A stretch of 64,000 bases of DNA from a phage, in assembly GCA_033580375.1 (NCBI GenBank), contig GCA_033580375.1_4527.1; one strand, given 5' to 3'. Both the position numbers and the translations under genes were made by a program. The notes under the pieces are model-generated. The model did not search any database. It was not told the origin of the DNA and saw nothing but the letters and a program-made list of their open reading frames with translations. Below are positions 3,313 to 62,246 of this stretch, in pieces; the stretch's first letter is position 1; each line of letters starts with the position of its first letter.

Positions 3313-3330
3313 GGGAGACTTCGGTCTCCC
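3313..3330 (+). terminator. Stem-loop GGGAGAC-TTCG-GTCTCCC followed by TTTCGTG, after gene 8
   Basis: Perfect 7 bp GC-rich stem with UUCG tetraloop, read directly; member of a repeated hairpin family. Confidence 0.6.
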
Positions 3331-3337
3331 TTTCGTG

Positions 3338-3345
3338 TATAAATA
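3338..3345 (+). promoter_or_regulatory. T4-type late promoter TATAAATA for gene 9
   Basis: Exact TATAAATA about 26 nt upstream of the gene 9 ATG. Confidence 0.7.
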
Positions 3346-3370
3346 GTATAAACTATTAAGGATTAGCCAC

Positions 3371-4234
3371 ATGTATATTCAAACTCCAAAACAATTGATT
3401 GACGTTGGCGAAATTGGTAACGCTTCTACAGGCGATATCCTTTTTGACGGCGGTGTTAAAATAAACAATGATATAAATGCTATTTACAATGCGTTTGGTG
3501 ACCAACGAAAAATGGCAACTGCTAATGGGACAGGACCAAATGGACAAATAATCCATGCCACTGGATACTACCAAAAAGGAGGTCCTACTGATTATTTCAC
3601 CCCTGTTCCAGTAGGAAGTAGACACGACATAGATGCTTCTACTGGTGGTGTTATTGTTACTGTTGCTAGAGGTGAACTCGGTGATTCCGTGGAATTTATA
3701 AATTCAAACGGTTCAATTTCGGTAAACAACCCATTAAGTATCCAAGCATTAGATTCTATTAAAGGTGTTGCAGGTAATTTAGTTATAACTACACCTTATA
3801 CTAAAGTTACTCTTCGTTGTATTTCTTCTGGTGCGGGCGGCTCAATATGGGATTATTCTACAGAAAGTATGTTTAGTCATACCGAAATTCCTGTAGACGG
3901 GACATGGAATATTATTTCAGACTATGTCAATATTCCTCTATTTTATAAAACTGAATATAATGCTGCTAAACTTTTGGTTACATGCCAATCTGCCAACGGC
4001 AGAAAAATTAAATCATGCGAAATAAATATTCTAATAGATACAATTAATTCAAGAGTTATTTCAACTGAATACGCAGTGATGCGCGTTGGTAATGATAACG
4101 AAGAAGACGAAATTGCGAATATTAGTTTTTCGATAATTAACAATTTTGCCACTATGACAGTTTCTTCACATATAAATGGTCTTCGAGTGGCAGCTAAAGT
4201 TATTTCAACTCAGAAAATTAGGGTCGCTCAATAA
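3371..4234 (+). CDS. 9: Baseplate wedge protein gp9 (long tail fibre socket)
   Basis: 287 aa versus T4 gp9 288 aa; synteny. Confidence 0.8.
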   Translation: MYIQTPKQLIDVGEIGNASTGDILFDGGVKINNDINAIYNAFGDQRKMATANGTGPNGQIIHATGYYQKGGPTDYFTPVPVGSRHDIDASTGGVIVTVARGELGDSVEFINSNGSISVNNPLSIQALDSIKGVAGNLVITTPYTKVTLRCISSGAGGSIWDYSTESMFSHTEIPVDGTWNIISDYVNIPLFYKTEYNAAKLLVTCQSANGRKIKSCEINILIDTINSRVISTEYAVMRVGNDNEEDEIANISFSIINNFATMTVSSHINGLRVAAKVISTQKIRVAQ

Positions 4235-6048
4235 TGAAACAAAATATTAAAATTGGGAACGTCGTTGATGACGGACAAGGCGATTACCTTCGTCGTGGTG
4301 GTGCAAAAATTAATGAAAACTTTGATGAGTTGTATTATGAATTAGGCGATGGCGAAGTTCCATATTCCGCTGGTGCCTGGAAAACATACCATTCTTCAGA
4401 TGGACTTAATTTAGCTGCTGAATGGGGTAAATCATACGCAATTGATACTTCAACAGGGCGTGTTTCTATAAATTTACCTAAAGGAACAGTGGAAGATTAT
4501 AATAAAGTAATTAGAGCCCGTGATGTATTCGCCACATGGAATATTAACCCTGTAACATTAATTGCTGCCAGCGGTGATACTATTAAAGGTTCTTCCAGCC
4601 CAGTAGAAATCAATGTGCAGTTTTCAGACTTAGAATTAGTTTACTGTTCTCCTGGGCGCTGGGAATACGTTAAAAATAAACAAATAGACAAAATTACTAG
4701 TTCTGATATTAGTAGTGTAGCTCGTAAAGAATTTTTAGTCGAAGTTCAAGGTCAAACTGATTTTCTTGATGTATTTGGGTCTGTTTCTTATAATGTGAAT
4801 AATATCCGTGTAAAACATCGTGGTAACGAATTATACTACGGTGATGCGTTCAGTGACAATAGCGACTTTGGTTCTCCAGGAGCTAATCCTGGAGAAATCG
4901 TTGCATTAGACGGTAAAAACATCCGTTTAAGACAACCATGTAATATTGGCGACACTGTACAAATTGAAACCTTTTTAGATGGGATTACACAATTACGTAG
5001 TTCTTATTCTCGTCGCCAAATACGTATTTTAGATTCGAAATTAACAACCCGTCCTTCCTTAGAAGGAAGTGTATATGTTGCTGATTTGTCAACTTTGAAA
5101 TCTATTCCTTTTTCCGCATTTGGAGTTAATCCTTCAGAACCGGTCAATACCAATTCTTTAGAAGTTCGTTTTAACGGTATTCTTCAAGAATTAGCTGGTA
5201 CTGTTGGTTTACCTATGTTCAGATGTGAAGGAGCTGACGCAGAAACTTCTACCGAGTGTTCAGCTTTAGGTGGGACTTGGGTTACATCTAACACAGATTA
5301 TTCTATTGAATATGATGATAACGATGCAACTATCGCACGTGCTTTAGTCTTTGACCGTAAGTTTGAAGACCAAGACATTATTGATATTACATGGTTTAAT
5401 AACGATTTAGGCACTTTATTAAGTATCGATGACATTTTAGATACAACTGATGAAAGGTATGTCGCACAAGGTGCAACCGTAAATGTGACAGGCGATGTGG
5501 CTTTGACCGATTTCAATAATATCGGATGGCCTAATGTAGAATCTGTTCCGGCATATAGCAGGGAATTCTCATCTATTGCAAATATTTTTAACACTATTTA
5601 CCCTGTCGGTACTATTTACGAAAATGCAGTGAACCCTAATAACCCAGCCACGTATTTAGGATTTGGCTCTTGGAAATTATGGGGACAAGGAAAAGTATTA
5701 GTTGGATGGAATGACGATATTAGCGATCCTAATTTTGCATTAAATAATAACGACCTTGATTCTAGCGGGAATCCTACACATACCGCCGGTGGAACAGTCG
5801 GAACAACGTCTAACACACTAACTAATTCTGATTTACCTCCTACTCAAACTGACGAGAAAGTTCTTATTTCCGATGAGAACGGTACAATTATTATTGGTGG
5901 TTGTCAATACGACCCTGATGCAGAAGGTCCTATATACACCAAATACCGTGAAGGCCACGCCACAACGAATAGTACACACATACCGCCTCAAGCCGTAAAT
6001 AATATTCAACCGTCAGTTACCGTATACCGTTGGGTAAGGATTGCATAA
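4234..6048 (+). CDS. 10: Baseplate wedge protein gp10
   Basis: 604 aa versus T4 gp10 602 aa; synteny; ATGA-type overlap with gene 9 stop. Confidence 0.8.
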
Positions 6049-6707
6049 TGACCATACTTAATACTAAAGCGGGAGTAATATCCCGCGAAGCAGATTTTTT
6101 AGGATTTAGAAAAAATCCTACTCAAATTGATATTTTAAACAACCAAGGCGTAGGTTCTGTAACTATTTCTCAATTGGCAAAAGGATTCTATGATGATAAC
6201 GTAGAATCTGCAATAAACGATGTTCATAATATTGCTAGAGCAGATGTAGGAACAGTTACAATTAACACCTCAGGTGTATCTCCTGAAGGAACTTCACAGG
6301 TAGATTATTGGTCCTTTAGTGGAAGTGTAACTGACCCTAGTTTGCCAGATGGAAGCCCTGTTATTGTAAAAGTTTATGGACTTCCTGTTAATGCTACTGT
6401 AGGTATGACCGCCGACGAATTTGTTGTACAATTACGTACTACTCTCCGGAATGCGATTTCCGACCAATTGGCTATTGCAGAGTATAAAGATGACCCTACT
6501 GTTGGGACTAAATTACAAATAACATATTTAGATAACCAAAGACACGTACTCCCAACGTATTCCTCTTATGGTATCACGGTTTCTCAAGAAATAGTGTCTC
6601 AGGCTAAGTCCGGGTACGGCACTTGGAATTTACTAGGTGCGCAAACCATTACTCTTGACAACCATATTTCACCTACAACCTTTTATTATTTTGTGAGAAC
6701 CGCATGA
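6048..6707 (+). CDS. 11: Baseplate wedge protein gp11 (short tail fibre attachment)
   Basis: Track ORF 6030..6707; start moved to the ATG at 6048 (TAATG overlap with gene 10 stop), giving 219 aa as in T4 gp11. Confidence 0.75.
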
Positions 6708-8254
6708 GTAACAATACATATCAACACGTTTCGAACGAATCTGTATATGTTGAATTTGACCCGGTAGGGTCAAATTTTGATAGTTCAATAACCAATGTCC
6801 AGGCAGCCTTAGCCTCAATTAGCGCATATGGTGTTAAAGGTGTTCCGGACGCAAGTGAAGCAGAAAAAGGTGTAATTCAATTAGCGACAGAACAAGAAGT
6901 TCTTGATGGATTTAATAGTACTAAAGCTGTTACACCCGCCACATTAAATGCAAGACTTCAGTATCCGAACGCGTCAGAAACACAATACGGTGTAACTAAA
7001 TACGCAACACAAGAGGAAGCCATTGCCGGCACTTTAGACACTGTTTCTATTACTCCGCTTAAATTAAACCAAACTATTGATAACACGTTCTCTACTCGTT
7101 ATTCAACAGAAACAACTAACGGTGTTATTAAAATTGCAACTCAAACCGCTGCACTTGCCGGGTCTGATGATACCACAGCAATGACACCGCTTAAAACTCA
7201 GCAATTAGCAATAAAATTAATTTCTCAAATAGCTCCTAATAACGACCCGGCTTCAGAATCTATTACCGGTGTTGTGCGTTTAGCTACTGTGGCTCAAACA
7301 CGTCAAGGAACTCTTCGCGAAGGATATGCAATTTCCCCGTATACCTTTATGAATTCTGTTGCAACACAAGAATATAAAGGTGTTATACGTCTAGGAACAC
7401 AAGCGGAAATTAATAGTAATTTGGGAGATGTTGCTGTAACAGGTGAAACGCTAAATGGTAGAGGAGCTACCGGTTCTATGCGTGGAGTCGTAAAATTAAC
7501 GACGCAGGCCGGTGTTGCACCCGAAGGCGATAGCTCTGGAGCATTAGCATGGAACGCAGATGTAATTAATACACGCGGTGGGCAAACTATTAATGGTTCT
7601 TTAAATTTAGACCATCTAACAGCAAATGGAATTTGGTCACGTGGCGGAATGTGGAAAAACGGCGACCAGCCGGTTGCAACAGAGCGATATGCATCTGAAC
7701 GTGTTCCTGTTGGAACAATTCAAATGTTCGCAGGTGATAGCGCTCCTCCAGGTTGGGTTTTATGTCATGGTGGGACCATTTCTGGAGACCAATTTCCGGA
7801 CTATCGAAATGTGGTTGGAACAAGATTTGGTGGTGATTGGAATAATCCTGGAATTCCAGACATGCGCGGTCTTTTTGTTAGAGGAGCTGGTACAGGCAGC
7901 CATATTTTAAATAATCGCGGTCAAGATGGCTATGGAAAGGATAGATTAGGTGTAGGATGTGACGGCATGCATGTTGGTGGTGTCCAAGCACAACAAATGT
8001 CATATCATAAACATGCCGGTGGATGGGGCGAATATCAACGTCATGAGGCACCATTCGGAGCATCCGTATATCAAGGTTATTTGGGTACTAGAAAATACTC
8101 TGATTGGGATAACGCATCATATTTCACAAATGACGGCTTCGAATTAGGTGGTCACCGCGACGCATTGGGCACTCTTAACCGTGAAGGACTTATCGGATAT
8201 GAGACTCGTCCATGGAATATATCTTTAAATTATATTATTAAAGTCCATTACTAA
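6704..8254 (+). CDS. 12: Short tail fibre protein gp12
   Basis: 516 aa; position between 11 and wac; T4 gp12 is ~527 aa. Confidence 0.8.
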
Positions 8255-8263
8255 GGGTAAAAA

Positions 8264-9706
8264 ATGATCGAATTAAAAAGTCTACCATACGTTGATGGCC
8301 CTCCTGATGAGGGTCAAAAACGTTTAAACTGGATTAAAAATTCAGAAGAAATAACTGGCGCTGATACGTTATACGGTTCTGAAGGAGTAATGAACCGTCC
8401 AATAACAGAAGTTCAACGAAATGTAGAAACAATTAACGATAACGTTAAGACTATCGCAGAATCTTTAGATACCGCTAATGCTGATATTGTCACAATTAAA
8501 AGTATCTTGGATGTTTCTGGTGACGTAGATGCTTTAGCACAAATTGGACATAACACTGATGATATTGAAGTATTAAAACACACTGTAAATTCACACGGTG
8601 TTGATATTTTAAACACTGAAGAAAAACTAGATGATACTATTGCTAATATCGGAGTAGTTAATCCAGAAACAGATTCAGTGTATCGTACAGTGCGTAACGA
8701 CCTTCTTTGGATTAAAACCGAATTAGGGCAATATACCGGACAAGATATTAATGGTGTCCCGACCGAAGGTAATGAAAGCACCGGGATGAAACGACGTATT
8801 ATTACTAACAGCTCAGTGTTGGTTGACCAAGGCGTTCGTTTAACCGAGTTAGAAAATAAATTTGCCGATTCTGATGTTGGGGCTCTGACAACCGAAGTTG
8901 AAAACCTCCGTCAAGAAATAGGTCCTAGACCATCGTTAACAGTACCGGTTTACACTCGTTTATCCGGTATTGATTCATCCATTTCTATCCAAACTAGAGA
9001 TATTGCGGCATTAAAAGATTTTGTTGGATATCCTAATTCAACCGCTATTAAAACTCAAGTCGAGGCCAATCGTCTTTCTATATCAACAATAAATTCAGAC
9101 ATTAACTCGCCTGGCGGTATTAAACCACGTTTGACAACGTTAGAAACTACTATAGGCTCTCCAGATTTACCAACTACTCTTCAGGGTAAGATCAAATTAA
9201 ATACCGATTCCATTTCAGGTATTAACACAGTTTTAGGTGTTGATTCTTCTAGTGGTTTACGTTTTAATGTAGCATGGCTTAATCAGGTGGTTGGCGTTGA
9301 TTCAAATGGTGGACAACCCGAACCGGCTGGTTCACTTTTATATAGGACTCGTGTTCTTGAAACTGGTGTTACCGACCTAGGCAATAACATTCAAAACGTT
9401 CAAACTGAATTGGGAACTAATTCGTCCGGTATTAAAGGACAAGTGACTAGTTTAAATAAACTTATAAGCGGTACCAACCCAAACGGTCAAACCATAGAAG
9501 AACGTGGTATATTGCCAACAGTTAAAAACCATGACACGACAATTACAGATTTAACTACGCGTGTTACCACTTTAGAAACCGACCTTGCTGCAGCAGAAGC
9601 AGAAATTCAGGCCCTTAAAGAGGCTGGATATATTGAAGATGCTCCTTCAGATGGTAAATTCTATGTTCGCAAAGATGGTGCATGGGTTGAACTTCCTACA
9701 GCTTAA
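8264..9706 (+). CDS. wac: Fibritin (whisker antigen control, neck whiskers)
   Basis: 480 aa; C-terminal GYIEDAPSDGKFYVRKDGAWVELPTA matches the T4 fibritin foldon [21 protein letters not shown]. Confidence 0.9.
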   Translation: MIELKSLPYVDGPPDEGQKRLNWIKNSEEITGADTLYGSEGVMNRPITEVQRNVETINDNVKTIAESLDTANADIVTIKSILDVSGDVDALAQIGHNTDDIEVLKHTVNSHGVDILNTEEKLDDTIANIGVVNPETDSVYRTVRNDLLWIKTELGQYTGQDINGVPTEGNESTGMKRRIITNSSVLVDQGVRLTELENKFADSDVGALTTEVENLRQEIGPRPSLTVPVYTRLSGIDSSISIQTRDIAALKDFVGYPNSTAIKTQVEANRLSISTINSDINSPGGIKPRLTTLETTIGSPDLPTTLQGKIKLNTDSISGINTVLGVDSSSGLRFNVAWLNQVVGVDSNGGQPEPAGSLLYRTRVLETGVTDLGNNIQNVQTELGTNSSGIKGQVTSLNKLISGTNPNGQTIEERGILPTVKNHDTTITDLTTRVTTLETDLAAAEAEIQALKEAGYIEDAPSDGKFYVRKDGAWVELPTA

Positions 9707-9712
9707 TGAAAA

Positions 9713-9726
9713 GGGCCTTCGGGCCC
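9713..9726 (+). terminator. Stem-loop GGGCC-TTCG-GGCCC after wac
   Basis: 5 bp GC stem with UUCG tetraloop directly after the wac stop codon. Confidence 0.5.
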
Positions 9727-9738
9727 TAAAGGATTTAT

Positions 9739-10665
9739 ATGTCAGGTTATAATGCACAAAACCCTAAAGAATTAAAGGATGTAATATTACGTCGTTTAGG
9801 CGCTCCTATTGTAAATGTCGAATTAACTACAGACCAAATTTATGATTGTATTTCACGAGCGTTAGAACTTTATGGCGAATACCATTTTGACGGGTTAAAT
9901 AAAGGTTTCCATGTATTTTTTGTTGATGACGAAGAAAAATACCGTCACGGCGTATTTGATATGCGTGGTTCTAATGTATTTGCTGTAACAAGAATTATAA
10001 GAACAAACGTTGGCTCTATTACTTCAATGGATGGTAACGCAACTTATCCTTGGTTCACTGATTTCCTTTTAGGAATGGCAGGCGTTTCTGGTGGTATGGG
10101 TAGTAATTGTGGTAAATTCTACGGTCCGAACGCTTTTGGTGCCGACCTCGGGTATTATTCTCAATTAGTATCTTATATGGGTATGCTTCAAGATATGATT
10201 GCTCCTCTTCCAGATTTTTGGTTTAACTCTGCAAACGAGCAATTAAAAGTAATGGGTAACTTTAGACAGAAAGATGTTATTATCGTTGAATCGTATGTTC
10301 GCTCTTATATTGAGACACATAAGATGGTAGGAAATACAGTAGGTTATGGACAGGTCGGTCCTCGTGATTCATGGTCTATTTCTGAGCGGTATGACAACCC
10401 AGACCATAATTTAGTCGGACGTCGAGTTGGTGAAGATCCTGCAACTAAACAAGGCGCATATAACAACCGCTGGGTTAAAGATTATGCAACTGCATTAGCT
10501 AAAGAGCTTAATGGACAAATTCTTGCTAAACATCAAGGTATGATGTTACCAGGCGGTGTCACTGTTGATGGTGTTCGATTAATTGAAGAAGCCCGTTTAG
10601 AGAAAGAAGCTTTACGAGAAGAGTTATATTTACTGGACCCTCCTGCAGGTATTTTGGTAGGTTAA
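9739..10665 (+). CDS. 13: Neck protein gp13
   Basis: 308 aa versus T4 gp13 309 aa; synteny. Confidence 0.8.
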
Positions 10666-10666
10666 T

Positions 10667-11431
10667 ATGGCAACTTATGATAAAAATCTTTTCGCCAAAC
10701 TAGAAAATCGTGGTGGCTATTCTCAGACAAATGAGACCGAAATCCTCAATCCATTTGTCAATTTTAATAACTATGAGAATAGTCAGACATTAGCTGATGT
10801 TCTAGTGGCAGAAAGCATACAAATGCGCGGTATTGAATGTTTTTATGTTCCACGTGAATATGTTGCCGTGGACCTTATCTTTGGTGAGGACCTTAAAAAT
10901 AAATTTACTAAAGCATGGAAATTTGCTGCATATCTGGACTCTTTTGAAGGTTATGAAGGAGCGAAATCGTTCTTCAGCAACTTCGGAATGCAAGTTCAAG
11001 ACGAAGTTACATTATCTATTAACCCAGGTCTTTTCAAACACCAGGTCAACAATCAGGAGCCTAAGGAAGGTGATTTAATATACTTCCCAATGGACAACAG
11101 TTTGTTTGAGATTAACTGGGTTGAACCATATGACCCGTTCTATCAAGTAGGTAAAAATGCGATTCGTAAAATTACTGCAGGCAAGTTTATTTACTCCGGT
11201 GAAGAAATCAATCCGGTGCTTCAGAAAAATGAAGGTATCAATATACCTGAATTTAGTGACTTGGAACTTAATCCTGTTAGAAATCTTGACGGTATCCATG
11301 ACATTAATATCGATGAGTATTCTGAAGTTGAGCAAATCAATTCAGAGGCAAGTGAATACGTTGAACCATATGTAGTAGTTAACAACCGTGGTAGACAAAA
11401 TTCACCATTTGACGATGGGTTTATGAATTAA
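10667..11431 (+). CDS. 14: Neck protein gp14
   Basis: 254 aa versus T4 gp14 256 aa; synteny. Confidence 0.8.
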
Positions 11432-11483
11432 TAAATAAATAAGATAAAGCAAACACCGGTCGAAAGGCCGGTTAGGAGAAATG

Positions 11484-12305
11484 ATGTTTGGCTATTTTTA
11501 CAACTCGTCGTTCAGGCGATATATCACAATGATGGGCGATTTGTTTTCAAATATCCAAGTTAACCGTCAATTGTCTACAGGCAATAAATTAATTAGAGTT
11601 CCTATTACGTATGCATCTAAAGAGCACTTTATGATGAAACTTAATAAATGGACCTCTATAAACTCACAAGAAGATGTGGCTAAAGTCGAAACTATTCTAC
11701 CACGTATAAATCTCCAAATGGTAGATTTCGTTTATAACCCGACGTTTAAAACGAATATATTGAATAACTCTCTTTTGAGTAAATCGACTAAGGATATTGT
11801 AGACCAATACAACCCATCACCAATTAAAATGATTTTTGAACTGAGCATCTTTACTCGTTACGAAGATGATATGTTCCAAATCGTTGAGCAAATTATTCCA
11901 TATTTTCAGCCGCATTTTAATACGACTATGATTGAGCAATATGGACAGGATATTCCATTTGAAAGGGATATTAAAGTCGTATGGATGGCAGCAGCAATGG
12001 ATGAACAAATAGACGGTGATAATTTATCCCGTCGACGTTTAGAGTGGTCATTAACATTTGAAGTAAATGGATGGATGTATCCTCCGGTAGGCGCAACAGA
12101 AGGCCTTATTAAAACGACTTATCTTGATTTTCATGCTAATGAACGAGACCTTCAAACAGCCGCCAGTGTTTTTGAATCAGTTGATACAGAAATTAAACCG
12201 AGAGACGTTGAAGCACAAGATTGGAATGGTGAAGTTGAACAAACTTATACTCATGATATTCCAATCCCGACTCCACCAACCCCTCCTGGTCCTAGAAAAC
12301 AATAA
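11484..12305 (+). CDS. 15: Tail sheath stabiliser / tail completion protein gp15
   Basis: N-terminus MFGYFYNSSFRRY matches T4 gp15; second ATG chosen for better spacing from the AGGAG RBS. Confidence 0.9.
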   Translation: MFGYFYNSSFRRYITMMGDLFSNIQVNRQLSTGNKLIRVPITYASKEHFMMKLNKWTSINSQEDVAKVETILPRINLQMVDFVYNPTFKTNILNNSLLSKSTKDIVDQYNPSPIKMIFELSIFTRYEDDMFQIVEQIIPYFQPHFNTTMIEQYGQDIPFERDIKVVWMAAAMDEQIDGDNLSRRRLEWSLTFEVNGWMYPPVGATEGLIKTTYLDFHANERDLQTAASVFESVDTEIKPRDVEAQDWNGEVEQTYTHDIPIPTPPTPPGPRKQ

Positions 12306-14631
<2,326 letters not shown>

Positions 14632-14658
14632 AAATAAAGCAAATTAAGAGGAATTAAA

Positions 14659-16641: not shown

Positions 16642-16652
16642 TAAGACGCCTG

Positions 16653-16674
16653 ATGGGCTATTTCGGTAGCCCAT
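16653..16674 (+). terminator. Inverted repeat ATGGGCTA-TTTCGG-TAGCCCAT after gene 18
   Basis: 8 bp stem read directly; first of two ATGGGC...GCCCAT hairpins in the 18-19 intergenic region. Confidence 0.5.
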
Positions 16675-16681
16675 ATAAATA
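16674..16681 (+). promoter_or_regulatory. Late promoter TATAAATA for gene 19
   Basis: Exact TATAAATA in the 18-19 intergenic region. Confidence 0.65.
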
Positions 16682-16707
16682 TACTATATCGTTTAAAAAT
16701 TAATTCT

Positions 16708-16735: not shown

Positions 16736-16753
16736 ATTACTACAGAGGCTAAT

Positions 16754-17245: not shown

Positions 17246-17251
17246 TCTGGT

Positions 17252-22664: not shown

Positions 22665-22682
22665 GGGAGACTCCGGTCTCCC
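22665..22682. terminator. Bidirectional stem-loop GGGAGAC-TCCG-GTCTCCC between convergent gene 23 and the GIY-YIG gene
   Basis: Perfect 7 bp stem; same hairpin family as 3313, 46145 and 62229. Confidence 0.6.
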
Positions 22683-23724: not shown

Positions 23725-25008
23725 ATGAGTAAAATCCAAAAATTATTGCGTGAATCTACAACGTCTACTAGCAACTCAATCGGTCGCCCAAATCTCGTTG
23801 CTTTGACTCGCGCTACGACTAAATTAATATATTCTGACATTGTGGCAACACAAAGAACTAATCAACCTGTTGCTGCTTTTTATGGTATTAAATATCTTAA
23901 CCCAGACAACGAATTAACATTTAAAACTGGTGCTACTTATGCAGGTGAAGCTGGATATGTAGACCGAGAAAAAATTACTGAGCTCACAGAAGAATCAAAA
24001 GCCACACTAAATAAAGGTGATTTTTTCAAATATAATAATATCGTCTATAAAGTGTTAGAAGATACACCGTTTGCAGATATTCAGGAAAGTGATCTAGAAT
24101 TAGCTCTTCAGATTGCGGTCGTTCATTTAAAGGTACGGTTATTTTCGGATGCAGCGGTAACAAGCAAATTTGAAAGCTCTGGTAGCGAAATTTCTGATGC
24201 AAGATTCCAGATTAATAAATGGCAAACTTCAGTCAAATCTCGTAAACTTAAAACCGGTCTCACGGTTGAATTAGCACAAGATTTGGAAGCGAATGGATTT
24301 GATGCCCCTAACTTCTTAGAAGATTTGCTTGCTACTGAAATGGCTGATGAAATTAATAAAGATATTCTTCAGTCTTTAATTACTGTATCGAAACGTTATA
24401 AAGTTACTGGAATTACTGACACTGGATTTATTGACTTGAGCTATGCATCCGCTCCGGAAGCAGGTCGTTCGTTATATCGAATGGTGTGTGAAATGGTATC
24501 GCACATTCAAAAAGAGTCAACTTATACTGCAACGTTTTGCGTAGCTTCAGCTCGTGCAGCTGCTATTCTTGCTGCTTCCGGTTGGTTAAAACATAAACCA
24601 GAAGATGATAAGTATCTTTCACAAAATGCTTACGGGTTCTTAGCTAATGGTTTACCGCTTTATTGCGATACTAACAGCCCATTAGATTATGTGATCGTTG
24701 GCGTAGTAGAAAATATTGGTGAAAAAGAAATTGTTGGATCAATTTTCTATGCTCCGTATACAGAAGGTCTCGACTTAGACGACCCTGAACATGTTGGTGC
24801 ATTTAAAGTTGTAGTTGATCCAGAAAGCTTGCAGCCGTCTATTGGTTTATTGGTTAGATATGCTTTATCTGCGAATCCTTACACAGTAGCAAAAGATGAA
24901 AAAGAAGCGAGAGTAATTGATGGTGGGGACATGGATAAAATGGCAGGACGTTCAGACTTGTCTGTTTTACTCGGTGTTAAATTGCCTAAAATTATTATAG
25001 ATGAATAA
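23725..25008 (+). CDS. 24: Capsid vertex protein gp24
   Basis: 427 aa as in T4 gp24; gp23 paralogue at the expected position. Confidence 0.9.
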   Translation: MSKIQKLLRESTTSTSNSIGRPNLVALTRATTKLIYSDIVATQRTNQPVAAFYGIKYLNPDNELTFKTGATYAGEAGYVDREKITELTEESKATLNKGDFFKYNNIVYKVLEDTPFADIQESDLELALQIAVVHLKVRLFSDAAVTSKFESSGSEISDARFQINKWQTSVKSRKLKTGLTVELAQDLEANGFDAPNFLEDLLATEMADEINKDILQSLITVSKRYKVTGITDTGFIDLSYASAPEAGRSLYRMVCEMVSHIQKESTYTATFCVASARAAAILAASGWLKHKPEDDKYLSQNAYGFLANGLPLYCDTNSPLDYVIVGVVENIGEKEIVGSIFYAPYTEGLDLDDPEHVGAFKVVVDPESLQPSIGLLVRYALSANPYTVAKDEKEARVIDGGDMDKMAGRSDLSVLLGVKLPKIIIDE

Positions 25009-25016
25009 ACGAAAAA

Positions 25017-25032
25017 GGGACCGTAAGGTCCC
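25017..25032. terminator. Bidirectional terminator AAAAA-GGGACC-GTAA-GGTCCC-TTTTT between convergent 24 and rnlB
   Basis: 6 bp GC stem flanked by A5 and T5 tracts. Confidence 0.7.
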
Positions 25033-25039
25033 TTTTTCG

Positions 25040-26047
25040 TTATGATACTAATTCAATCCATGCAGGACGCAGAACATCTTGCACCATTCGGACTAATTCT
25101 TTCTTAACAAGATTCGGATTATCAGATGATGTTAATACAATACCTTCACGAGAAGTTTCTTCCAGAATATCTTGAACAGTCAATCCCATCACTTTGCCAA
25201 AATCTTTTGGTGTTACAGTCCCAATCTTAGAAATCACATTATTAACACGATTTAATGTAACATAACAAGCTAGAACATCAAGCAAGTTTTTGTCAATTTC
25301 GGTTAATGGAACCTGAGTTTTAACAGGTTTATCAGACTTTTTCTTTTCACTGAATTTAGAGTTCTTGCACTTAATAGCTACACGAGTACCGTTTGGCAGC
25401 CATTTAGGGAAACAAGGCTTCAGAACATAACCTTCTGCCGTATTATCACCAATAACATTAGCATCAAATACACAATTATTTGCTTCGACAAGGTCTTCCG
25501 ATGCCGTAGCATTATAAGCGGCTAAGACGGAATCAAGGTCGTTTGGAATCATGATAAGAGCATCAAATGTTCCACGTCCAAGCATTGGTGCCATTTTAAA
25601 ACCAAACGTATTACAGAAATCTTGCATTTCGTAATCACTCATGTAATAAGTATCACCGCTTTCCGTGTTTATGATGATATCGAATACATAGAAATCTTTT
25701 TCACCGTAGTCAACACCTTTCTGAATTCCACCACCAGCGAATTCACCAAAGACTTGATATGTCACCGGCACTGAAGTTGAAATACTGCCCATGACTTCCT
25801 GAACGGCTTTAATAGCTTTATCATACTTCTTGAGTACTATTTCATAACCATAAAAATCTTCTGCTGGAAGAATAGGGCCTGTGCGCTTGGCGCATGTGAC
25901 GTTGTCACGTTCAATAATTAAACTAAAGTTGGTCCCATGGATTTTCTCACGTGCTACCCAAACACCAGTAGTCAAACCATTAGTGTAGAGTTTTTCAATA
26001 AACTTAGAGTTGTAGTGGTTTTCAAGACTGCTGTATTTCTTAAACAT
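25040..26047 (-). CDS. rnlB: RNA ligase 2 (Rnl2)
   Basis: 335 aa; N-terminus [20 protein letters not shown] and KIHG adenylylation motif match T4 Rnl2. Confidence 0.95.
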
Positions 26048-26615: not shown

Positions 26616-26690
26616 TCCAGTGTTATTTGGTTTGTGCCATTATATACATCAATCTCAAGTTGTGTTTTGTATGCTTTAAAAACGAAGAAA

Positions 26691-26704
26691 GGGGCCGAAG
26701 CCCC
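26691..26704 (-). terminator. Terminator GGGGC-TTCG-GCCCC plus T-tract after hoc
   Basis: - strand: hoc stop, then stem-loop, then CTTCGTTTTT. Confidence 0.65.
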
Positions 26705-26710
26705 TTACGA

Positions 26711-28854: not shown

Positions 28855-30369
28855 ATGACTGACATTAAAGTACATTTTTATGATTTTAGTCACGTTCGCA
28901 TTGAATGCGACGAAAGTACGTTTTACGAACTTCGTGACTTTTTTAGCTTTGAAGCTGACGGGTATAAATTTAACCCAAAATATCGCTATGGGCAATGGGA
29001 TGGTAGAATTCGACTTTTAGATTACAATCGTTTGTTACCATATGGACTTGTAGGACAAATAAAAAAGTTCTGTAACAATATGAGTTATTCTGTATGGATT
29101 GACCCTAAAATCTTTGAGACCGAAGACCTTACCAGGGAAGATTTTGACGCATGGCTTTCTAAACAAGAAATTTATTCAGGCAATGCCAAAATCGAACCGC
29201 ATTGGTATCAAAAAGATGCAGTATATGAAGGACTAGTTAATCGTCGTCGAATTTTAAACCTTCCGACATCAGCAGGTAAATCACTAATCCAAGCACTTTT
29301 AGCTCGGTATTATCTAGAGAACTATGAAGGTAAAATTCTCATTATCGTCCCTACAACAGCATTGACAACCCAGATGGCTAATGATTTTGTTGATTATCGC
29401 TTGTTTAGTCATTCGATGATTAAGAAAATTGGCGGTGGTGCTGATAAAGCCGACAAATCTAAAAACGACGCTCCAATTATTGTTGGCACATGGCAAACGG
29501 TAGTTAAGCAGCCTAAAGAATGGTTCTCTCAGTTCGGTATGATGATGAACGATGAATGCCACTTAGCAACAGGCAAAAGTATTTCTTCAATCATCTCAGG
29601 ATTAAATAATTGCATGTTTAAATTCGGTTTATCCGGCTCATTAAGAGACGGAAAAGCCAATGTAATGCAGTACGTAGGTATGTTCGGCGAAATCTTCCGT
29701 CCTGTTAGCACGTCTAAATTAATGGAAGACGGACAGGTAACTGAGCTTAAGATTAATAGTATTTTCCTTCGTTATCCAGACGAATTCGCCACTAAATTAA
29801 AAGGTAAAACATACCAAGAAGAAGTTAAAATTATTACCGGACTAAAACGTCGTACAAAGTGGATTGCTCAACTTTCAGTCAAATTGGCTAAGAAAGACGA
29901 GAACGCCTTTGTAATGTTTAAACACGTTACACACGGTAAAGAAATATTTGAAGCTATTAAAGAGCTTGGATACGAAAAAGTTTATTACGTATCAGGTGAA
30001 GTTGATACTGAAACACGTAACGCTCTTAAAGTCATGGCGGAAAATGGTAAAGGCATTATTATTGTCGCATCATATGGAGTATTCTCTACCGGTATTTCAG
30101 TCAAGAATCTTCATCATGTTATTTTTGCCCATGGTGTTAAATCAAAAATTATCGTACTTCAAACCGTAGGTCGAGTGCTTCGTAAGCATGGTTCTAAAGC
30201 TGTTGCTACAGTTTGGGATCTCATCGATGACGCAGGTGTAAAACCTAAATCATTAAATACTAAAAAGAAGTATACTCATCTTAATTACTTGTTAAAACAC
30301 GGTATTGATCGTATCCAACGTTACGCTGATGAGAAATTTAACTATGTAATGAAAACAATTAATTTATAA
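28855..30369 (+). CDS. uvsW: UvsW RNA-DNA / DNA helicase (SF2)
   Basis: 504 aa; Walker A-like LPTSAGKS and DExH-like MNDECH motifs; T4 synteny. Confidence 0.9.
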   Translation: MTDIKVHFYDFSHVRIECDESTFYELRDFFSFEADGYKFNPKYRYGQWDGRIRLLDYNRLLPYGLVGQIKKFCNNMSYSVWIDPKIFETEDLTREDFDAWLSKQEIYSGNAKIEPHWYQKDAVYEGLVNRRRILNLPTSAGKSLIQALLARYYLENYEGKILIIVPTTALTTQMANDFVDYRLFSHSMIKKIGGGADKADKSKNDAPIIVGTWQTVVKQPKEWFSQFGMMMNDECHLATGKSISSIISGLNNCMFKFGLSGSLRDGKANVMQYVGMFGEIFRPVSTSKLMEDGQVTELKINSIFLRYPDEFATKLKGKTYQEEVKIITGLKRRTKWIAQLSVKLAKKDENAFVMFKHVTHGKEIFEAIKELGYEKVYYVSGEVDTETRNALKVMAENGKGIIIVASYGVFSTGISVKNLHHVIFAHGVKSKIIVLQTVGRVLRKHGSKAVATVWDLIDDAGVKPKSLNTKKKYTHLNYLLKHGIDRIQRYADEKFNYVMKTINL

Positions 30370-30383
30370 GGGCTTCGGCCCTT
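30368..30383 (+). terminator. Stem-loop AAGGGC-TTCG-GCCCTT between uvsW and uvsW.1
   Basis: 6 bp stem with UUCG tetraloop, immediately followed by the AGGAG RBS of uvsW.1. Confidence 0.5.
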
Positions 30384-30394
30384 AGGAGATAAAA

Positions 30395-38934: not shown

Positions 38935-38951
38935 GGGAGACAACGTCTCCC
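38935..38951. terminator. Bidirectional terminator A10-GGGAGAC-AAC-GTCTCCC-TTT between convergent gene 54 and a - strand ORF
   Basis: 7 bp stem preceded by an A10 run. Confidence 0.65.
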
Positions 38952-41400: not shown

Positions 41401-41440
41401 AGTGTTTTCCTTTTAGTAATAATTTATATTTATGCCAAAA

Positions 41441-41456
41441 AGAGCCCGAAGGCTCT
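41441..41456 (-). terminator. Stem-loop AGAGCC-TTCG-GGCTCT plus T-tract downstream of ORF 41456..41644
   Basis: - strand: TAA, stem-loop, TTTTTGG. Confidence 0.6.
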
Positions 41457-41644
41457 TAATCCACAATCGGGAGCAAAGTACGATAAACTTCAAAATTAGG
41501 GCCTTTTTCGTACCCATTAACGTTATCTACGAAAACCCGATACGAATTTTCATTAGGAAAATCTAATATAATCTGAGAGCAAGAGGTGGAAACATCTCCA
41601 CCGTCCTTCTTAGCTACAATAACTGTTTCTAAATAAGCTTTCAT
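41456..41644 (-). CDS. Hypothetical protein (62 aa)
   Basis: Start set to the ATG at 41644, which overlaps the ligase stop codon (TAATG). Confidence 0.45.
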   Translation of the reverse strand: MKAYLETVIVAKKDGGDVSTSCSQIILDFPNENSYRVFVDNVNGYEKGPNFEVYRTLLPIVD

Positions 41645-45205: not shown

Positions 45206-45221
45206 GGGAGCCGAAGCTCCC
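45206..45221 (-). terminator. Stem-loop GGGAGC-TTCG-GCTCCC between ORFs
   Basis: 6 bp stem directly after the upstream stop and before the RBS of the downstream gene. Confidence 0.5.
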
Positions 45222-46037: not shown

Positions 46038-46079
46038 TTTATTCTCCAGATTGTTTTATTGATTAGGTGGTACAAGTCT

Positions 46080-46108
46080 ATAGTAACACATCCTACAGGA
46101 GAGTAAAC
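46080..46108 (-). promoter_or_regulatory. Early-type promoter GTTTAC-N17-TACTAT for ORF 45669..46037
   Basis: Consensus blocks on the - strand. Confidence 0.5.
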
Positions 46109-46144
46109 ATCTTTTTAAACTTTTTCTGCCCTAAACGCACAAAA

Positions 46145-46162
46145 GGGAGACCGAAGTCTCCC
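46145..46162 (-). terminator. Stem-loop GGGAGAC-TTCG-GTCTCCC followed by TTTTGTG, after the small basic ORF
   Basis: Same hairpin as at 3313 and 62229, on the - strand. Confidence 0.6.
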
Positions 46163-48359: not shown

Positions 48360-49351
48360 TATTGAACCTTATTAATATAAGTTAACAGCTCTTTAGTTTG
48401 TTCCCAACTGATGCACGCATCGGTAACGGAAACGCCATAGGACATATTATCAGAAATTTTTTGATTTCCTTCATGTAGGAACGATTCTATCATAATTCCT
48501 TTGACCAAATCATTAGCTGCTAAATTTTTACCAATACCAATTTGATTGCTATAATGCCCTTCAGCGTTTGCATGGCTACAGTCAACCATTACATAATGAT
48601 TCAGACCTACTGCCCTTGCTTTGTTAGAAGCTTCTTGAATATCAGAAGAATGATAGTTCGGGCCGTTGGTCCCGCCACGCAATACGATATGCGTATTCTG
48701 ATTACCTTCAGCTTCAACAATGCCTACAGTACCATCGACGTCCATACCCATATACCGATGAGGCCAGGCGGCACTATACATCGCGTCTGTAGCTACTTTA
48801 ATAGAACCATTGGTTGCGTTCTTGAAGCCTACGCACATCGGTAGACCTGAAGCAATTTCACGATGTGTCTGACTTTCAGTCGTACGGGCGCCAATAGCAA
48901 CCCATGAGAAAATACCAGAAAGATACTTAATCGTGAATGGGTCTAATACTTCAGTTGCTAATGGAAGTCCCATACGTAGAAGTTTACGACACAATGTTCG
49001 TGCAACTATAAGACCGTGGTTCATATCAAAACTTCCGTCAAGATATGGATCATTTACAAGACCTTTCCAACCTACGGTAGTTCGAGGCTTTTCAAAATAA
49101 ACGCGCATCACTAACAGAACATTAGGAAGACGAGTTTGAAGTTCAGCCAGACGTTTGCCGTATTCAACAGCAGCAATAGGGTCATGAATTGAACAAGGAC
49201 CTACAACAATAAGTTTGCGTGGGTCTTCACCGTTCATAATCGAATTAACTTGTTCGCGATGAGAAGCCACTTGTGATGCGTAAGCTTCCGACAAAGGAAT
49301 AATCTCAGCCAGTTCTTTTGGAGAAATAAGTTTTCCGACGACAGGTAACAT
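48359..49351 (-). CDS. 3-deoxy-D-arabino-heptulosonate-7-phosphate (DAHP) synthase, class I alpha (AroG/AroF-like); auxiliary metabolic gene
   Basis: 330 aa; motifs LIVVGPCSIHD, RVYFEKPRTTVGWKGL, GARTTESQ, DCSHAN, IESFLHEGNQ and SVTDACISW match the AroG active site. Stop overlaps the cd start (TAATG). Confidence 0.85.
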   Translation of the reverse strand: MLPVVGKLISPKELAEIIPLSEAYASQVASHREQVNSIMNGEDPRKLIVVGPCSIHDPIAAVEYGKRLAELQTRLPNVLLVMRVYFEKPRTTVGWKGLVNDPYLDGSFDMNHGLIVARTLCRKLLRMGLPLATEVLDPFTIKYLSGIFSWVAIGARTTESQTHREIASGLPMCVGFKNATNGSIKVATDAMYSAAWPHRYMGMDVDGTVGIVEAEGNQNTHIVLRGGTNGPNYHSSDIQEASNKARAVGLNHYVMVDCSHANAEGHYSNQIGIGKNLAANDLVKGIMIESFLHEGNQKISDNMSYGVSVTDACISWEQTKELLTYINKVQ

Positions 49352-51832: not shown

Positions 51833-51860
51833 TTAGATTTCCTCAATTATCCATAGGAGC

Positions 51861-51890
51861 ATTATACTCTGCTCCCGAGAGTTTGTAAAC
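51861..51890 (-). promoter_or_regulatory. Early-type promoter GTTTAC-N18-TATAAT for ORF 51533..51832
   Basis: Consensus -35 and perfect -10 on the - strand. Confidence 0.55.
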
Positions 51891-54897: not shown

Positions 54898-54911
54898 GGG
54901 ACCGAAGTCCC
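54898..54911 (-). promoter_or_regulatory. Stem-loop GGGAC-TTCG-GTCCC between the nrdB stop/SD-like AAGGA and the denA ATG
   Basis: mRNA reads UAAGGACG-GGGACUUCGGUCCC-ACUUUAUU-AUG; the hairpin sits between an SD-like sequence and the start codon. Confidence 0.5.
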
Positions 54912-54915: not shown

Positions 54916-56091
54916 TTAGAAATATTTTTTGTATGAATTGATTACATTTTGGTCTACATCATTATCAATTTGTGCAACAAGATAAGAACTGATTTCAACT
55001 TCCTGAGGAGCTGCTTGAACTAAATCAGAGTTCAGATATTCACGAATCCAAGGATACGGATGTTTGGTCGGAGCATCAGTAATTGGACACGGCAAACCAC
55101 ACTGTTTCATACGAGACACAGTCAAGTAATCAACAAAAGCACACATACTCTGTGTATTGATACCTGGACATGTACCGTCTTTAAAGAGGTGCGCAGCCCA
55201 TTCCTTCTCTTGACTATTTACTTCCATAAAAATGTCAACTGCTTCTTGTTCACATTCTTTAGCAATTTGAACCCACTCATCGCCGTCAGTACCAGATTGA
55301 AGTTGACGGATAATGTACTGAGTACCCTTAAGGTGGAGTTGTTCGTCACGAGCAATGAACTTCATAATCTTTGCATTGCCTTCCATAATTTCCATATTTT
55401 TATGGAAGTTGAAAGTACATGCAAATGATACGTAAAAACGAATAGCTTCTAAGGCGTTGATAACGTGCAAACAGAGATAAAGAGATTTCATTAGCTCACG
55501 CTTGGCGTTAAACATTATTTCTTCGTACATCTCAATATCATTCTGCTGGCATGAGCCTAGTGAATACTCATAATTTTCCTTAGCATTTTCCCAATGGCGA
55601 GTCTTGATTAGAACATCATCATAATATTTACCTATTGATTCAGCTCGTTTCATGATTGCTTCGTCTAATACAATTTCATCAAATACCTTAGATGGATCGG
55701 TATAAAGATTTCGCATAATATGAGTATATGAACGAGAGTGAATAGTTTCACTGAATGTCCATGTTGCAACCCATGTATCTAATGAAGGGTCAGAAATAAG
55801 TGCCATAAGTACCGCAGATGGGGCCCTGCCTTGTATAGAATCTAATAATGATTGATACTTAAGATTGTTTGTAAAGATGTCCTGTTGGAACTGAGGAAGC
55901 TTATTGAACTGCGCAGAGTCCAACATCAAGTTTACCTCTTCTGGGCGCCAAAAAAATGAGAGAGATTTTTCAGTAAGGTCTTCAAAAACTTTATGACGTT
56001 GGATATCGTAACGTGCAATGCCTAAACCAGAACCAAAAAACATCGGTTCATTTAAAACATCAACTTGTTGGGTGTTAAAAACTGTGCTCAT
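54916..56091 (-). CDS. nrdB: Ribonucleotide reductase small (beta) subunit, uninterrupted
   Basis: 391 aa; di-iron/tyrosyl radical R2 family; T4 synteny; no intron. Confidence 0.9.
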   Translation of the reverse strand: MSTVFNTQQVDVLNEPMFFGSGLGIARYDIQRHKVFEDLTEKSLSFFWRPEEVNLMLDSAQFNKLPQFQQDIFTNNLKYQSLLDSIQGRAPSAVLMALISDPSLDTWVATWTFSETIHSRSYTHIMRNLYTDPSKVFDEIVLDEAIMKRAESIGKYYDDVLIKTRHWENAKENYEYSLGSCQQNDIEMYEEIMFNAKRELMKSLYLCLHVINALEAIRFYVSFACTFNFHKNMEIMEGNAKIMKFIARDEQLHLKGTQYIIRQLQSGTDGDEWVQIAKECEQEAVDIFMEVNSQEKEWAAHLFKDGTCPGINTQSMCAFVDYLTVSRMKQCGLPCPITDAPTKHPYPWIREYLNSDLVQAAPQEVEISSYLVAQIDNDVDQNVINSYKKYF

Positions 56092-56729
56092 TTAAAATCC
56101 TTAAATTTACATTTATCATAATGCCATCTTAAAGCATTACCCTTATTAACTTTCTTGCCACAATGTGGACATGGCGGATATTCAGTACCAGATTTAGTCT
56201 TTTCAGATATTAACAATTTTGTTTTATCTGTATGTGGTACACCTCTTGTTGGAGATATTGTACCATACATAGGATTAAGCACACCAAGTTTAGACTTTGA
56301 TATATTTTCACAGTGTTCTTTAGATTTAGGCTTTCTCATCCGTTGGATATGTAAATCTGTAAATTGTCGTCCTTTCAAAGCTTCGCTGATTTTAGCTTTG
56401 GTTTCCTCAGACATTTCACGTCCAGTCATAGCCTCTGATAGAAGTTTCTTGCCTAATTCGTATAGCCTAGAAGAAACGTTATAATTTCTCCCTTTATTGG
56501 TCAAACACATCATACCAAAGGCTTGTTTAAGACCAGGATAAGAATTGAATTTGGTTAATAATCTATGAGCTAAAAAGTGTTCACGACCAGTTAAATCCAC
56601 AAGGTTTTCAACATCATTGGTTCCTCCTAAACATTTAGGAATTATATGATGAGTCTCTTTATATTCGGATAAAGGTTCCCGAGCCTTCGCCCGGGAAATT
56701 AGGTCATTATAGATTTTTTGATAATTCAT
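56088..56729 (-). mobile_element. Free-standing HNH homing endonuclease (at the T4 mobE position between nrdA and nrdB)
   Basis: 213 aa; HNH motif ETHHIIPKCLGGTNDVENLVDLTGREHFLAH; C-terminal CPHCG...C zinc ribbon. Confidence 0.8.
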
Positions 56730-61441: not shown

Positions 61442-61699
61442 TTAAACAGACTTTTTCACAATTTTCCAATCAGCTTTAAACGATTCAACGTCAGAGTGGT
61501 GAATCCAGAATCCTGCACTTTCGCCGTCTTCGTAGAGTGGACATCCGTCACATTCTTCGTTCCAACCCATTTCACGTAAAGCTTCTTCAGCTTGTTCAAG
61601 TAGTTCAGCATCTTTACCAACGACGTTGAAGTACCATTTACCTTTAACTTCAGAATCTTTGATGCTCTGACGTTGTAATCTCATTTTATTCTCCTTCAC
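61442..61699 (-). CDS. Hypothetical protein (85 aa)
   Basis: ORF in operon orientation. Confidence 0.5.
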   Translation of the reverse strand: MKENKMRLQRQSIKDSEVKGKWYFNVVGKDAELLEQAEEALREMGWNEECDGCPLYEDGESAGFWIHHSDVESFKADWKIVKKSV

Positions 61700-61746
61700 T
61701 TTTGATTTGATAGGGCTATGTTATAGTAGCCCTATCTTGTTATAAA

Positions 61747-62139
61747 CTACTTTTTAAAAGTTTTTTGCAAAAGTTTGATGATTTCGTCGACGTTGGTTTC
61801 ATCTACGATACAATGGATTTTTGTTACACCTAAAGTTATACCTTCGTTAGTAGGTTGAGGCTTTACTAAATCTACCTCAGTAAAGTATTTGAACTCGTCA
61901 GGATAAATCTCAAAATAAGTTTCAATTTCACCACCGGCAGAACATACAGTACCATCTTCCATAGTTACACTTACTACGTTTGGCGTATCATTATCATAAT
62001 CAGGTTCCATTCCGTTTACAACAAAACTGGGCCCGTGGAGTTCAATCAATTTTAACATCTTAGCGTTATTATGTGGTGCTTCTTGAACAAAGTCGTCTTT
62101 AAATAAAGGGTTAATGATATAAGATTTTCCGATTTCCAT
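61747..62139 (-). CDS. Hypothetical protein (130 aa)
   Basis: ORF with AGGAA RBS and early promoter. Confidence 0.5.
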   Translation of the reverse strand: MEIGKSYIINPLFKDDFVQEAPHNNAKMLKLIELHGPSFVVNGMEPDYDNDTPNVVSVTMEDGTVCSAGGEIETYFEIYPDEFKYFTEVDLVKPQPTNEGITLGVTKIHCIVDETNVDEIIKLLQKTFKK

Positions 62140-62168
62140 TTTGATTTCCTCATGTTGTTGATAAGTCT

Positions 62169-62197
62169 ATACTAACACATCCAGGGAAGAAGTAAAC
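62169..62197 (-). promoter_or_regulatory. Early-type promoter GTTTAC-N17-TAGTAT for ORF 61747..62139
   Basis: Consensus blocks and conserved CTTATCAACAACATGAGGAA leader. Confidence 0.55.
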
Positions 62198-62228
62198 AAC
62201 TTTTTCGGTAATTTACAGATACTCAAAA

Positions 62229-62246
62229 GGGAGACCGAAGTCTCCC
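62229..62246 (-). terminator. Stem-loop GGGAGAC-TTCG-GTCTCCC followed by TTTTGAG, after gene 32
   Basis: Perfect 7 bp stem directly downstream of the gene 32 stop. Confidence 0.65.

Follow-up and report, generated by a model that had tools for sequence, protein, structure and literature searches.

A recurrent GGGAGAC hairpin at gene boundaries of an RB69-like T4-type phage

Why does one hairpin sequence, GGGAGAC-YYCG-GTCTCCC, recur between the genes of a phage, and does it act there as RNA or as DNA? The question is raised by a 64,000-nucleotide stretch of phage DNA (NCBI GenBank assembly GCA_033580375.1, contig GCA_033580375.1_4527.1; the window in the following), for which a first-pass annotation had described a family of such hairpins as gene-boundary punctuation. 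The first 20 kb of the window are matched over their full length by phage RB69 (Straboviridae, Tevenvirinae, Mosigvirus) with about 98% identity, and according to megablast the window is collinear with RB69 except for a handful of indels; it belongs to an RB69-like T4-type phage. It is probable, in our view (about 85%), that we are dealing with RNA hairpins that mark the limits of transcription units and cistrons in this phage. They are already catalogued as predicted T4-type terminators, and it is slightly unusual that five of them share exactly one stem.

Five hairpins with one stem in the window and in RB69

The exact sequence GGGAGAC-YYCG-GTCTCCC was found four times in the window, at 3313, 22665, 46145 and 62229. 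Dinucleotide-preserving shuffles gave 0.00 expected matches, and 0.04 when two mismatches were allowed. Base composition, which according to the first-pass annotation might have explained the motif frequency, is thereby ruled out, and chance was rejected as the source of the exact copies. At a fifth site (38935-38951) the same 7-bp stem encloses AAC on the plus strand and GUU on the minus strand. Thus, the stem originally assigned to five sites is present at all five, but the UUCG-type tetraloop only at four, because the loop at 38935 comprises 3 nucleotides (nt). The UUCG loops at 3313, 46145 and 62229 and those of six variant hairpins are closed by a C-G pair, which likewise closes the UCCG loop at 22665.

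The five copies fold with -13.3 to -16.5 kcal/mol (z -2.75 to -4.5). The stems of the hairpins are perfect (7-10 bp) and lie, together with the loops, within the range used to define terminators (stem of 5-15 bp, loop of 3-8 nt). A stop codon precedes each of the five copies by 3-30 nt, and the hairpins read in sense with respect to the gene it ends. Two of them are followed by a predicted early promoter (46145, 62229), one by a late promoter (3313) and two by a convergent gene (22665, 38935). The tail of the 3313 hairpin, UUUCGUGU (UUUCGUG), precedes a late-promoter box TATAAATA at about 3338-3345, and the hairpin behind gene 23, encoding the major capsid protein, has the tail AUUCUUGUUUCU and a convergent minus-strand open reading frame (ORF) opposite. 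A clear U-tract is present at 38935 (minus strand, U10), 46145 (UUUUG) and 62229 (UUUUG). Since 38935 has A10 on one flank and T3 on the other, it would be able to terminate both strands. The predicted early promoter lies about 21 nt behind the 46145 hairpin and is followed by a Shine-Dalgarno (SD) sequence and ATG; the layout at 62229 is the same with a gap of about 17 nt, and the ORF downstream of this gene 32 early promoter belongs to the FRD2 family.

All five copies have counterparts at orthologous coordinates in the TransTerm list of rho-independent terminators published for RB69 (PMC1524935; Nolan et al. 2006, Virol J 3:30; Additional file 6), and these predicted terminators are the same elements. 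They are listed with 7-bp stems and a TransTerm score of 100 as 8-->9 (89887-89904), 23-><-ORF188c (109234-109251), 54-><-alt.-3 (124931-124947, flagged as bidirectional, the counterpart of 38935), 30.8<--30.9 (132140-132157, the counterpart of 46145) and ORF245c<--32 (146032-146049, the counterpart of 62229). The early promoters Pe:132117 and Pe:146013 are given in Additional file 3 of the same paper. Six genomes were compared there; a terminator behind gene 23 is predicted in all of them, one behind gene 32 in five. The RB69 paper gives coordinates only and does not remark that five terminators have one stem sequence in common. The window differs from RB69 in the gene 23 loop (UCCG rather than UUCG) and, through indels, in the flanks of the gene 23 and gene 32 copies.

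A genome-wide count of the motif, proposed in the first-pass annotation, was carried out on the complete RB69 genome. The stem is present solely at the five orthologous sites (RB69 89.9-146.0 kb), and each GGGAGAC heptamer of the genome falls in one of the five hairpins. A pervasive, genome-wide repeat family was therefore rejected; besides the five sites, only two hairpins with a stem shorter by one pair (GGAGAC) were detected. Strong hairpins in general are concentrated between genes, in RB69 (43 of 106 intergenic, in 7% of the genome) as well as in the window, where 18 of 37 strong perfect hairpins are intergenic, intergenic DNA making up only about 5% of the bases. About 20 of the approximately 43 intergenic hairpins of RB69 carry a UUCG loop in sense orientation, on varied stems. 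In the window the strand of the flanking genes carries the UUCG reading in nine of nine exact loops and also in the one UCCG loop. With gathering thresholds, no known RNA family of Rfam was matched anywhere in the window.

Seven variants of the hairpin had been reported at 9713 (GGGCC), 25017 (GGGACC-GTAA), 26691 (GGGGC), 30368 (AAGGGC), 41441 (AGAGCC), 45206 (GGGAGC) and 54898 (GGGAC). All seven are present and fold as predicted (Table 1), and those behind genes 24, hoc and alt.1 appear in the RB69 list, too ('24-><-rnlB', '24.3<--hoc' and 'alt<--alt.1', corresponding to 25008, 26689 and 41440; PMC1524935). The 30367 hairpin is directly followed by the SD sequence (GGAG) and the AUG of uvsW.1. 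The first-pass annotation distinguished three kinds of context, all of which are visible in the sequence: a T-tract behind the hairpin, a bidirectional position where convergent genes meet, and a ribosome-binding site (RBS) immediately behind the hairpin. The term gene-boundary punctuation is appropriate, covering terminator, bidirectional and RBS-adjacent hairpins that would act in RNA.

Table 1. Positions of the hairpins in the window and of the predicted early promoters following two of them
Feature	Position	Strand	Location	Details
Hairpin GGGAGAC-UUCG-GUCUCCC	3313..3330	+	gene 8/gene 9 junction	fold -14.1 kcal/mol, z -3.8
Hairpin AGGGCC-UUCG-GGCCCU	9712..9727	+	between wac and gene 13	no U-tract; RBS next
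Hairpin GGGAGAC-UCCG-GUCUCCC	22665..22682	+	3' of gene 23	fold -16.5 kcal/mol, z -4.5
15-bp putative bidirectional terminator AACGAAAAAGGGACC-GUAA-GGUCCCUUUUUCGUU	25008..25041	both	gene 24 (+)/rnlB (-)	-25.3 kcal/mol, z -7.9
Hairpin AAGGGGC-UUCG-GCCCCUU	26689..26706	-	3' of hoc	U-rich tail
Hairpin UAAGGGC-UUCG-GCCCUUA	30367..30384	+	uvsW stop codon within the stem	no U-tract
Hairpin with 7-bp stem and 3-nt loop, putative bidirectional terminator	38935..38951	both	gene 54 (+)/alt.-3 (-)	
Hairpin AAGAGCC-UUCG-GGCUCUU	41440..41457	-	between alt.1 and alt	tail UUUGGCAU
Hairpin GGGAGC-UUCG-GCUCCC	45206..45221	-	between 30.7 and 30.6	no U-tract; SD GAGGAAA next
Predicted early promoter (GTTTACT ... 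TATAGACTT)	46073..46122 (approximate)	-	ahead of gene 30.8	transferred from RB69 Pe:132117
Hairpin GGGAGAC-UUCG-GUCUCCC	46145..46162	-	3' of gene 30.9	tail UUUUGUG
Hairpin GGGAC-UUCG-GUCCC	54898..54911	-	between nrdB and denA	tail ACUUUAUUAUG; denA AUG 9 nt downstream
Predicted early promoter	62161..62210 (approximate)	-	ahead of frd.2	transferred from RB69 Pe:146013
Hairpin GGGAGAC-UUCG-GUCUCCC	62229..62246	-	3' of gene 32	tail UUUUGAG

Mapping of the RB69 annotation onto the window gave a first block of genes 7 to 23 on the plus strand, followed by 24, rnlB, hoc, uvsW, uvsY, 25-29, 48 and 54, and a minus-strand block with alt, 30, the 30.x genes, rIII, 31, cd, pseT, rnlA, denA, nrdB, nrdA, td, frd and 32. 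Two minus-strand ORFs were noticed within the latter block. An ORF of 213 amino acids between nrdB and nrdA (56088-56729), absent from RB69, has HNH and NUMOD3 motifs and resembles the homing endonuclease MobE, in a position known from T4. At 48359-49351, where collinearity with RB69 is broken, an ORF of 330 amino acids matches the DAHP synthetase I family (E 4e-75) and may represent an auxiliary sugar-biosynthesis gene.

Conservation at the same junctions and probable action in RNA

The junctions anchored on gp8, gp23, gp54, gp32 and gp30.8 were taken from T4-like contigs of IMG/VR. Relatives with as little as about 56-60% protein identity have a hairpin within a few nt of the end of genes 8, 23, 54 and 32. 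In most relatives (down to about 56% protein identity) gene 8 is followed by a strong hairpin 1-11 nt past the stop codon, and most of those having it show a T-run and TATAAATA behind it. The stems at this junction include GGGAGAC, GGGAGCC, GGGACTCC, GGGACCC, GGGCC, GGAGAC, GGGACC, GCCACC, GGGAG and others; UUCG is the commonest loop, GCAA and GAAA being found, too. The same applies to the junctions of genes 23, 54 and 32, where the hairpin is kept and the stem varied, and GGAGCC and GGGGGAC are among the stems seen across the four junctions. In a sister clade the stems differ from those of the window at all four comparable sites. The gene 32 terminator of RB55, a phage of the T4 species, reads GGGGACC-CUAGA-GGUCCCC; U6 comes next, and an early promoter after it.

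Among 26 distinct hairpins at the gene 8/gene 9 junction, changes on both sides were observed in seven of seven stem pairs; 99.5% of the cells were paired, a percentage inflated by the alignment, in which the best hairpin predicted for each sequence served as anchor. In this comparison with related phages, which the first-pass annotation had suggested, the hairpin persists while its stem changes by compensatory substitutions. Because the stems vary with compensated pairs at the same junctions, it is, judging from the aligned contigs, the structure and position of the hairpins that are conserved across T4-like phages and not the sequence.

This bears on the earlier suggestion that sequence identity indicates a sequence-specific binding partner. 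GGGAGAC...GTCTCCC would then be the recognition site of a protein or RNA, such as an RNA-binding regulator of the phage, a recombinase or an endoribonuclease, for which the identity is kept. The stem is identical at five sites, which in RB69 hold all GGGAGAC heptamers, and GGAG, which a note in the RB69 annotation gives as the core motif cleaved by the phage endoribonuclease RegB, is part of its 5' arm. Furthermore, the authors of a paper on the promoter-early stem-loops (PeSLs) of T4-like phages speculated that a DNA-binding protein might recognise the GGGG...CCCC stem-loop (PMC2839356). However, related phages possessing the same core proteins have different, compensated stems at the orthologous sites, other terminators of the same genome have other stems, GGAG would be buried in a very stable helix and the Rfam scan revealed no known RNA family. 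The exact sequence is also found as a terminator in unrelated phages and bacteria. The 18-mer GGGAGACTTCGGTCTCCC was detected at least 122 times in viral contigs, which range in GC content from 30 to 63% and differ in the flanks of the motif, and at least 126 times in diverse bacteria, compared to about 17 expected at uniform composition. Among the matches listed, 107 of 122 viral and 103 of 126 bacterial ones carry at least five T in the next 8 nt (UUCG orientation for the viral matches). GGGAGAC-UUCG-GUCUCCC is a generic intrinsic terminator that evolved repeatedly. Given this convergence and the covariation, no sequence-specific partner is needed, and we consider its existence highly improbable. 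Many genomes of Gallionellaceae, Sideroxydans and Nitrosomonadales have several exact copies of the 18-mer on one contig; reuse of a single terminator hairpin may be a habit of these bacteria, too.

Alternatively, the RNA hairpin might be incidental and the palindrome in the DNA be what counts, as a cruciform, as a signal for replication or packaging or as a site related to restriction. They are perfect inverted repeats, and their stem holds the type IIS restriction sites GGTCTC/GAGACC and GTCTC/GAGAC, as read from the sequence. Moreover, activity at the DNA level is indicated by the gene 54/alt.-3 junction. In four independent pairs, each of two close relatives, one member has the reverse complement of the other's loop there (AAC/GTT, GAAA/TTTC, GTGA/TCAC and GCAA/TTGC), with stem and flanks collinear; such palindromes therefore flip their loops as DNA. 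This looks like a recurrent flip-flop of the loop of a perfect palindrome. A function as DNA gives no reason for a fixed loop orientation, yet UNCG and GNRA loops at the four unidirectional junctions across T4-like phages are sense in a ratio of 38:1 (and the window shows nine of nine), whereas at the bidirectional gene 54 site sense and antisense loops are found 3:3. In addition, the positions follow stop codons and promoters, and U-tracts stand on the transcribed strand after the hairpin. We therefore regard a role of the palindromes as DNA as hardly credible. The contrast of 38:1 with 3:3 is comparative evidence that directly supports a function as RNA. It is most simply read as loop flips happening everywhere and being selected against where one strand only is read into the hairpin. 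Loops that flip at a bidirectional terminator and are kept in sense at unidirectional ones represent a natural experiment for selection on an RNA tetraloop.

As RNA hairpins at transcription-unit and cistron boundaries, the elements may work as follows. In the nascent mRNA a stem of 5-7 bp, its 5' arm rich in G and its 3' arm rich in C, would fold immediately, with the very stable C(UUCG)G tetraloop on top. Where a U-rich tract is present (the five GGGAGAC copies as well as 25008, 26689 and 41440), host RNA polymerase would terminate, probably only in part, and the hairpin remaining at the 3' end would shield the upstream message against 3' exonucleases. Hairpins without a U-tract (9712, 30367, 45206 and, less clearly, 54898) would more likely be a decay barrier or insulator ahead of the next RBS. 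Transcription would restart behind three of the five copies, from the late promoter after gene 8 and from the early promoters after genes 30.9 and 32. The shared stem may be explained by GGGAGAC-UUCG-GUCUCCC lying within a narrow optimum that was reached repeatedly and independently, plus a modest lineage-specific reuse.

Several points weigh against this interpretation, in addition to the anchoring of the covariation alignment. The four variants just named lack a U-tract and therefore cannot be classical terminators, and the U-tracts of the gene 8 copy (UUUCGUGU) and the gene 23 copy (AUUCUUGU, AUUCUUGUUU) are interrupted. A simple consensus scan for terminators omitted 3313; in positions 1-20000 this promoter/terminator scan gave 21 terminator-like sites compared to 14.1 +/- 3.6 expected and was uninformative. 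Termination and RNA stabilisation by the hairpins in vivo, as well as the reason for the stem sharing, are what we infer from the sequences. In a literature search of limited scope, no Term-seq study of T4-type phages was found. Finally, a narrow optimum on its own fails to predict five identical stems in one phage while the sister clade differs at four sites, and the sharing of stems within genomes exceeds the shuffle expectation.

Origin of the shared stem

The last point was derived from a census of G-initiated intergenic stems covering about 45 kb per genome. The lineages have different favourite stems: GGGAGAC in the window (five times), GGGAGCC (three times) and GGAGCC (twice) in one clade, GGGACC (four times) in a second, GGGAACC (three times) in a third and GGGCC (two to three times) in JS98-like phages. 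Among 14 clade representatives we counted 39 identical within-genome stem pairs, compared to 21.2 +/- 4.3 by shuffle (p 0.0007). When the window, which had prompted the test, was left out, 29 pairs were found versus 17.0 expected (p 0.005); a site-matched permutation without the window gave 7 versus 2.8 expected (p 0.02), with contigs merged greedily and some clades mixed. This approximately 1.8-fold reuse fits occasional copying between hairpins as well as lineage-specific selection. Since the latter would give the same signal, stem reuse is at best partial support for the duplication or recombination suggested in the first-pass annotation. Lineage-specific reuse, two copies with PeSL layout and ORF-sized indels beside the gene 23 and gene 32 hairpins agree with that suggestion; the absence of shared sequence beyond the 18-mer, except for promoter and U-tract consensus, does not.

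It is conceivable, if rather doubtful, that the identical copies arose by copying, i.e. that hairpins or terminator-promoter cassettes were spread or homogenised within a genome by the highly active recombination or template switching of the phage and serve as joints for module exchange. This would be compatible with a role as terminators because it concerns the origin of the identity only. The lineage-specific stems with their excess over shuffle and permutation, the different stems of the sister clade at the comparable sites, the restriction of the five copies to RB69 89.9-146.0 kb and the loop inversions in four pairs of close relatives, by which palindromes are seen to rearrange as DNA, are in line with copying. 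Against copying stand the small size of the excess (only about 1.8-fold), the lack of phylogenetic independence among the clade representatives and the clearly independent origins of the 18-mer elsewhere.

The layout of hairpin, 17-21 nt and predicted early promoter at two of the copies points in the same direction, but three of the five copies are not beside an early promoter, and beyond the 18-mer only A/U extensions, the U-tract and the early-promoter consensus are held in common. The similarity of about 100 nt downstream of 46145 and 62229 was considered as a trace of a recent duplication and rejected: the two promoter regions are 64% identical, which ranks 113 of 1653 RB69 early-promoter pairs, and reflect the early-promoter consensus. 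Two further palindrome families, GATAGG(G/A)CTA-TnTTATAG-TAGCCCTATC and GAGCA-GAGTATAA-TGCTC, were noticed at 61709-61736 and 51856-51875 of the window and at 76760, 145248, 72020, 136639 and 164972 of RB69. Their positions match the -10/+1 part of Pe:76812, Pe:145300, Pe:72069, Pe:136687 and Pe:165022, all of which are predicted early promoters.

Two indels adjoin copies of the hairpin. RB69 ORF245c (about 237 bp) is missing from the window (window 62137-62162; RB69 145675-145963), the junction being placed within a repeated motif for translation initiation, ATCAACAA(C)ATGAGGAAA..AAAATG, shortly behind the terminator and early promoter of gene 32; the loss of the ORF is a PeSL-style indel. 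The second one, starting at 22696 in comparison to RB69, is a seg-like cassette inserted 14 nt after the gene 23 hairpin. Both fit joints for module exchange. Intergenic DNA is where the ends of ORF indels have to fall anyway, however, so that finding them next to hairpins is confounded and weak evidence. The cassette between genes 23 and 24 (22693-23637, minus strand), absent from RB69 and 86-90% identical to contigs 2974741249 and 2974735671, comprises an ORF of 219 amino acids with a weak SegE GIY-YIG match (E 8e-4, under the Pfam cut-off) and an adjoining ORF of 93 amino acids. The cassette is probably that of a free-standing homing endonuclease.

In another T4-like lineage (contigs 2706796299 and 2974573174) the terminators of genes 23 and 32 are identical over 34 nt including the tail, AAGGAGCC-TTCG-GGCTCCTT-TTGTTGTTTCTGGA, a clearer hint of copying between two terminators than anything in the window. 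Speculatively, dispersed terminator hairpins of T4-like phages could evolve in concert. Short-patch ectopic conversion or template switching would homogenise the stems within a lineage, and different lineages would come to have different fixed alleles, the RB69-like phages GGGAGAC; the same activity on DNA would flip the loops, with flipped forms surviving only where both strands are transcribed into the hairpin. If the reuse of stems in a lineage is due to copying, regulatory punctuation evolves in concert and could be used to trace module exchange.

Comparison with known T4-type elements

As a discovery the hairpins matter little: elements of this type, which terminate transcription or stabilise RNA, are standard in T4-type phages, those of RB69 have been catalogued and their combination with promoters has been published as PeSLs. 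According to the papers describing these cassettes (Arbiol et al. 2010, PMC2839356; Comeau et al. 2014, PMC4122927), a PeSL consists of a stem-loop terminator with a G-run and a C-run, followed by a sigma70-type early promoter, SD and ATG. T4-type stem-loops of this kind were experimentally found to be effective terminators in RB49, according to the abstract of PMC2839356, and the methods of that paper include a lacZ reporter assay for terminator function. As described there, PeSLs have a lineage-specific stem consensus and are associated with ORF-sized indels and crossovers between -10 and SD/ATG. The layout fits the 30.9/30.8 and gene 32/frd.2 copies of the window, and the ORF245c indel fits the crossover pattern. 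PeSLs are described mainly in hyperplastic regions. The paralogous copies of the window show no exceptional similarity beyond consensus. Three of the five copies are not PeSLs: a late promoter follows one of them, and two separate convergent genes in the conserved region of structural genes.

C(UUCG)G hairpins in intercistronic regions of T4 were reportedly described by Tuerk et al. (1988, PNAS 85:1364). Like those of the window, they have UUCG closed by C-G, are intercistronic and unusually stable and are tied to termination and mRNA ends. The window differs in having one UCCG and one 3-nt loop, and the point here is the identity of the stem. The T4 gene 32 terminator is said to have been employed by Prentki and Krisch in 1984 as the strong terminator of the omega interposon. 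Like its counterpart in the window, it is located a few to about 20 nt past the gene 32 stop codon with an early promoter next to it, and combines a strong hairpin with a U-tract. Its allele GGGGACC-CUAGA-GGUCCCC, with a 5-nt loop and U6, differs from GGGAGAC-UUCG with the shorter U4 of the window.

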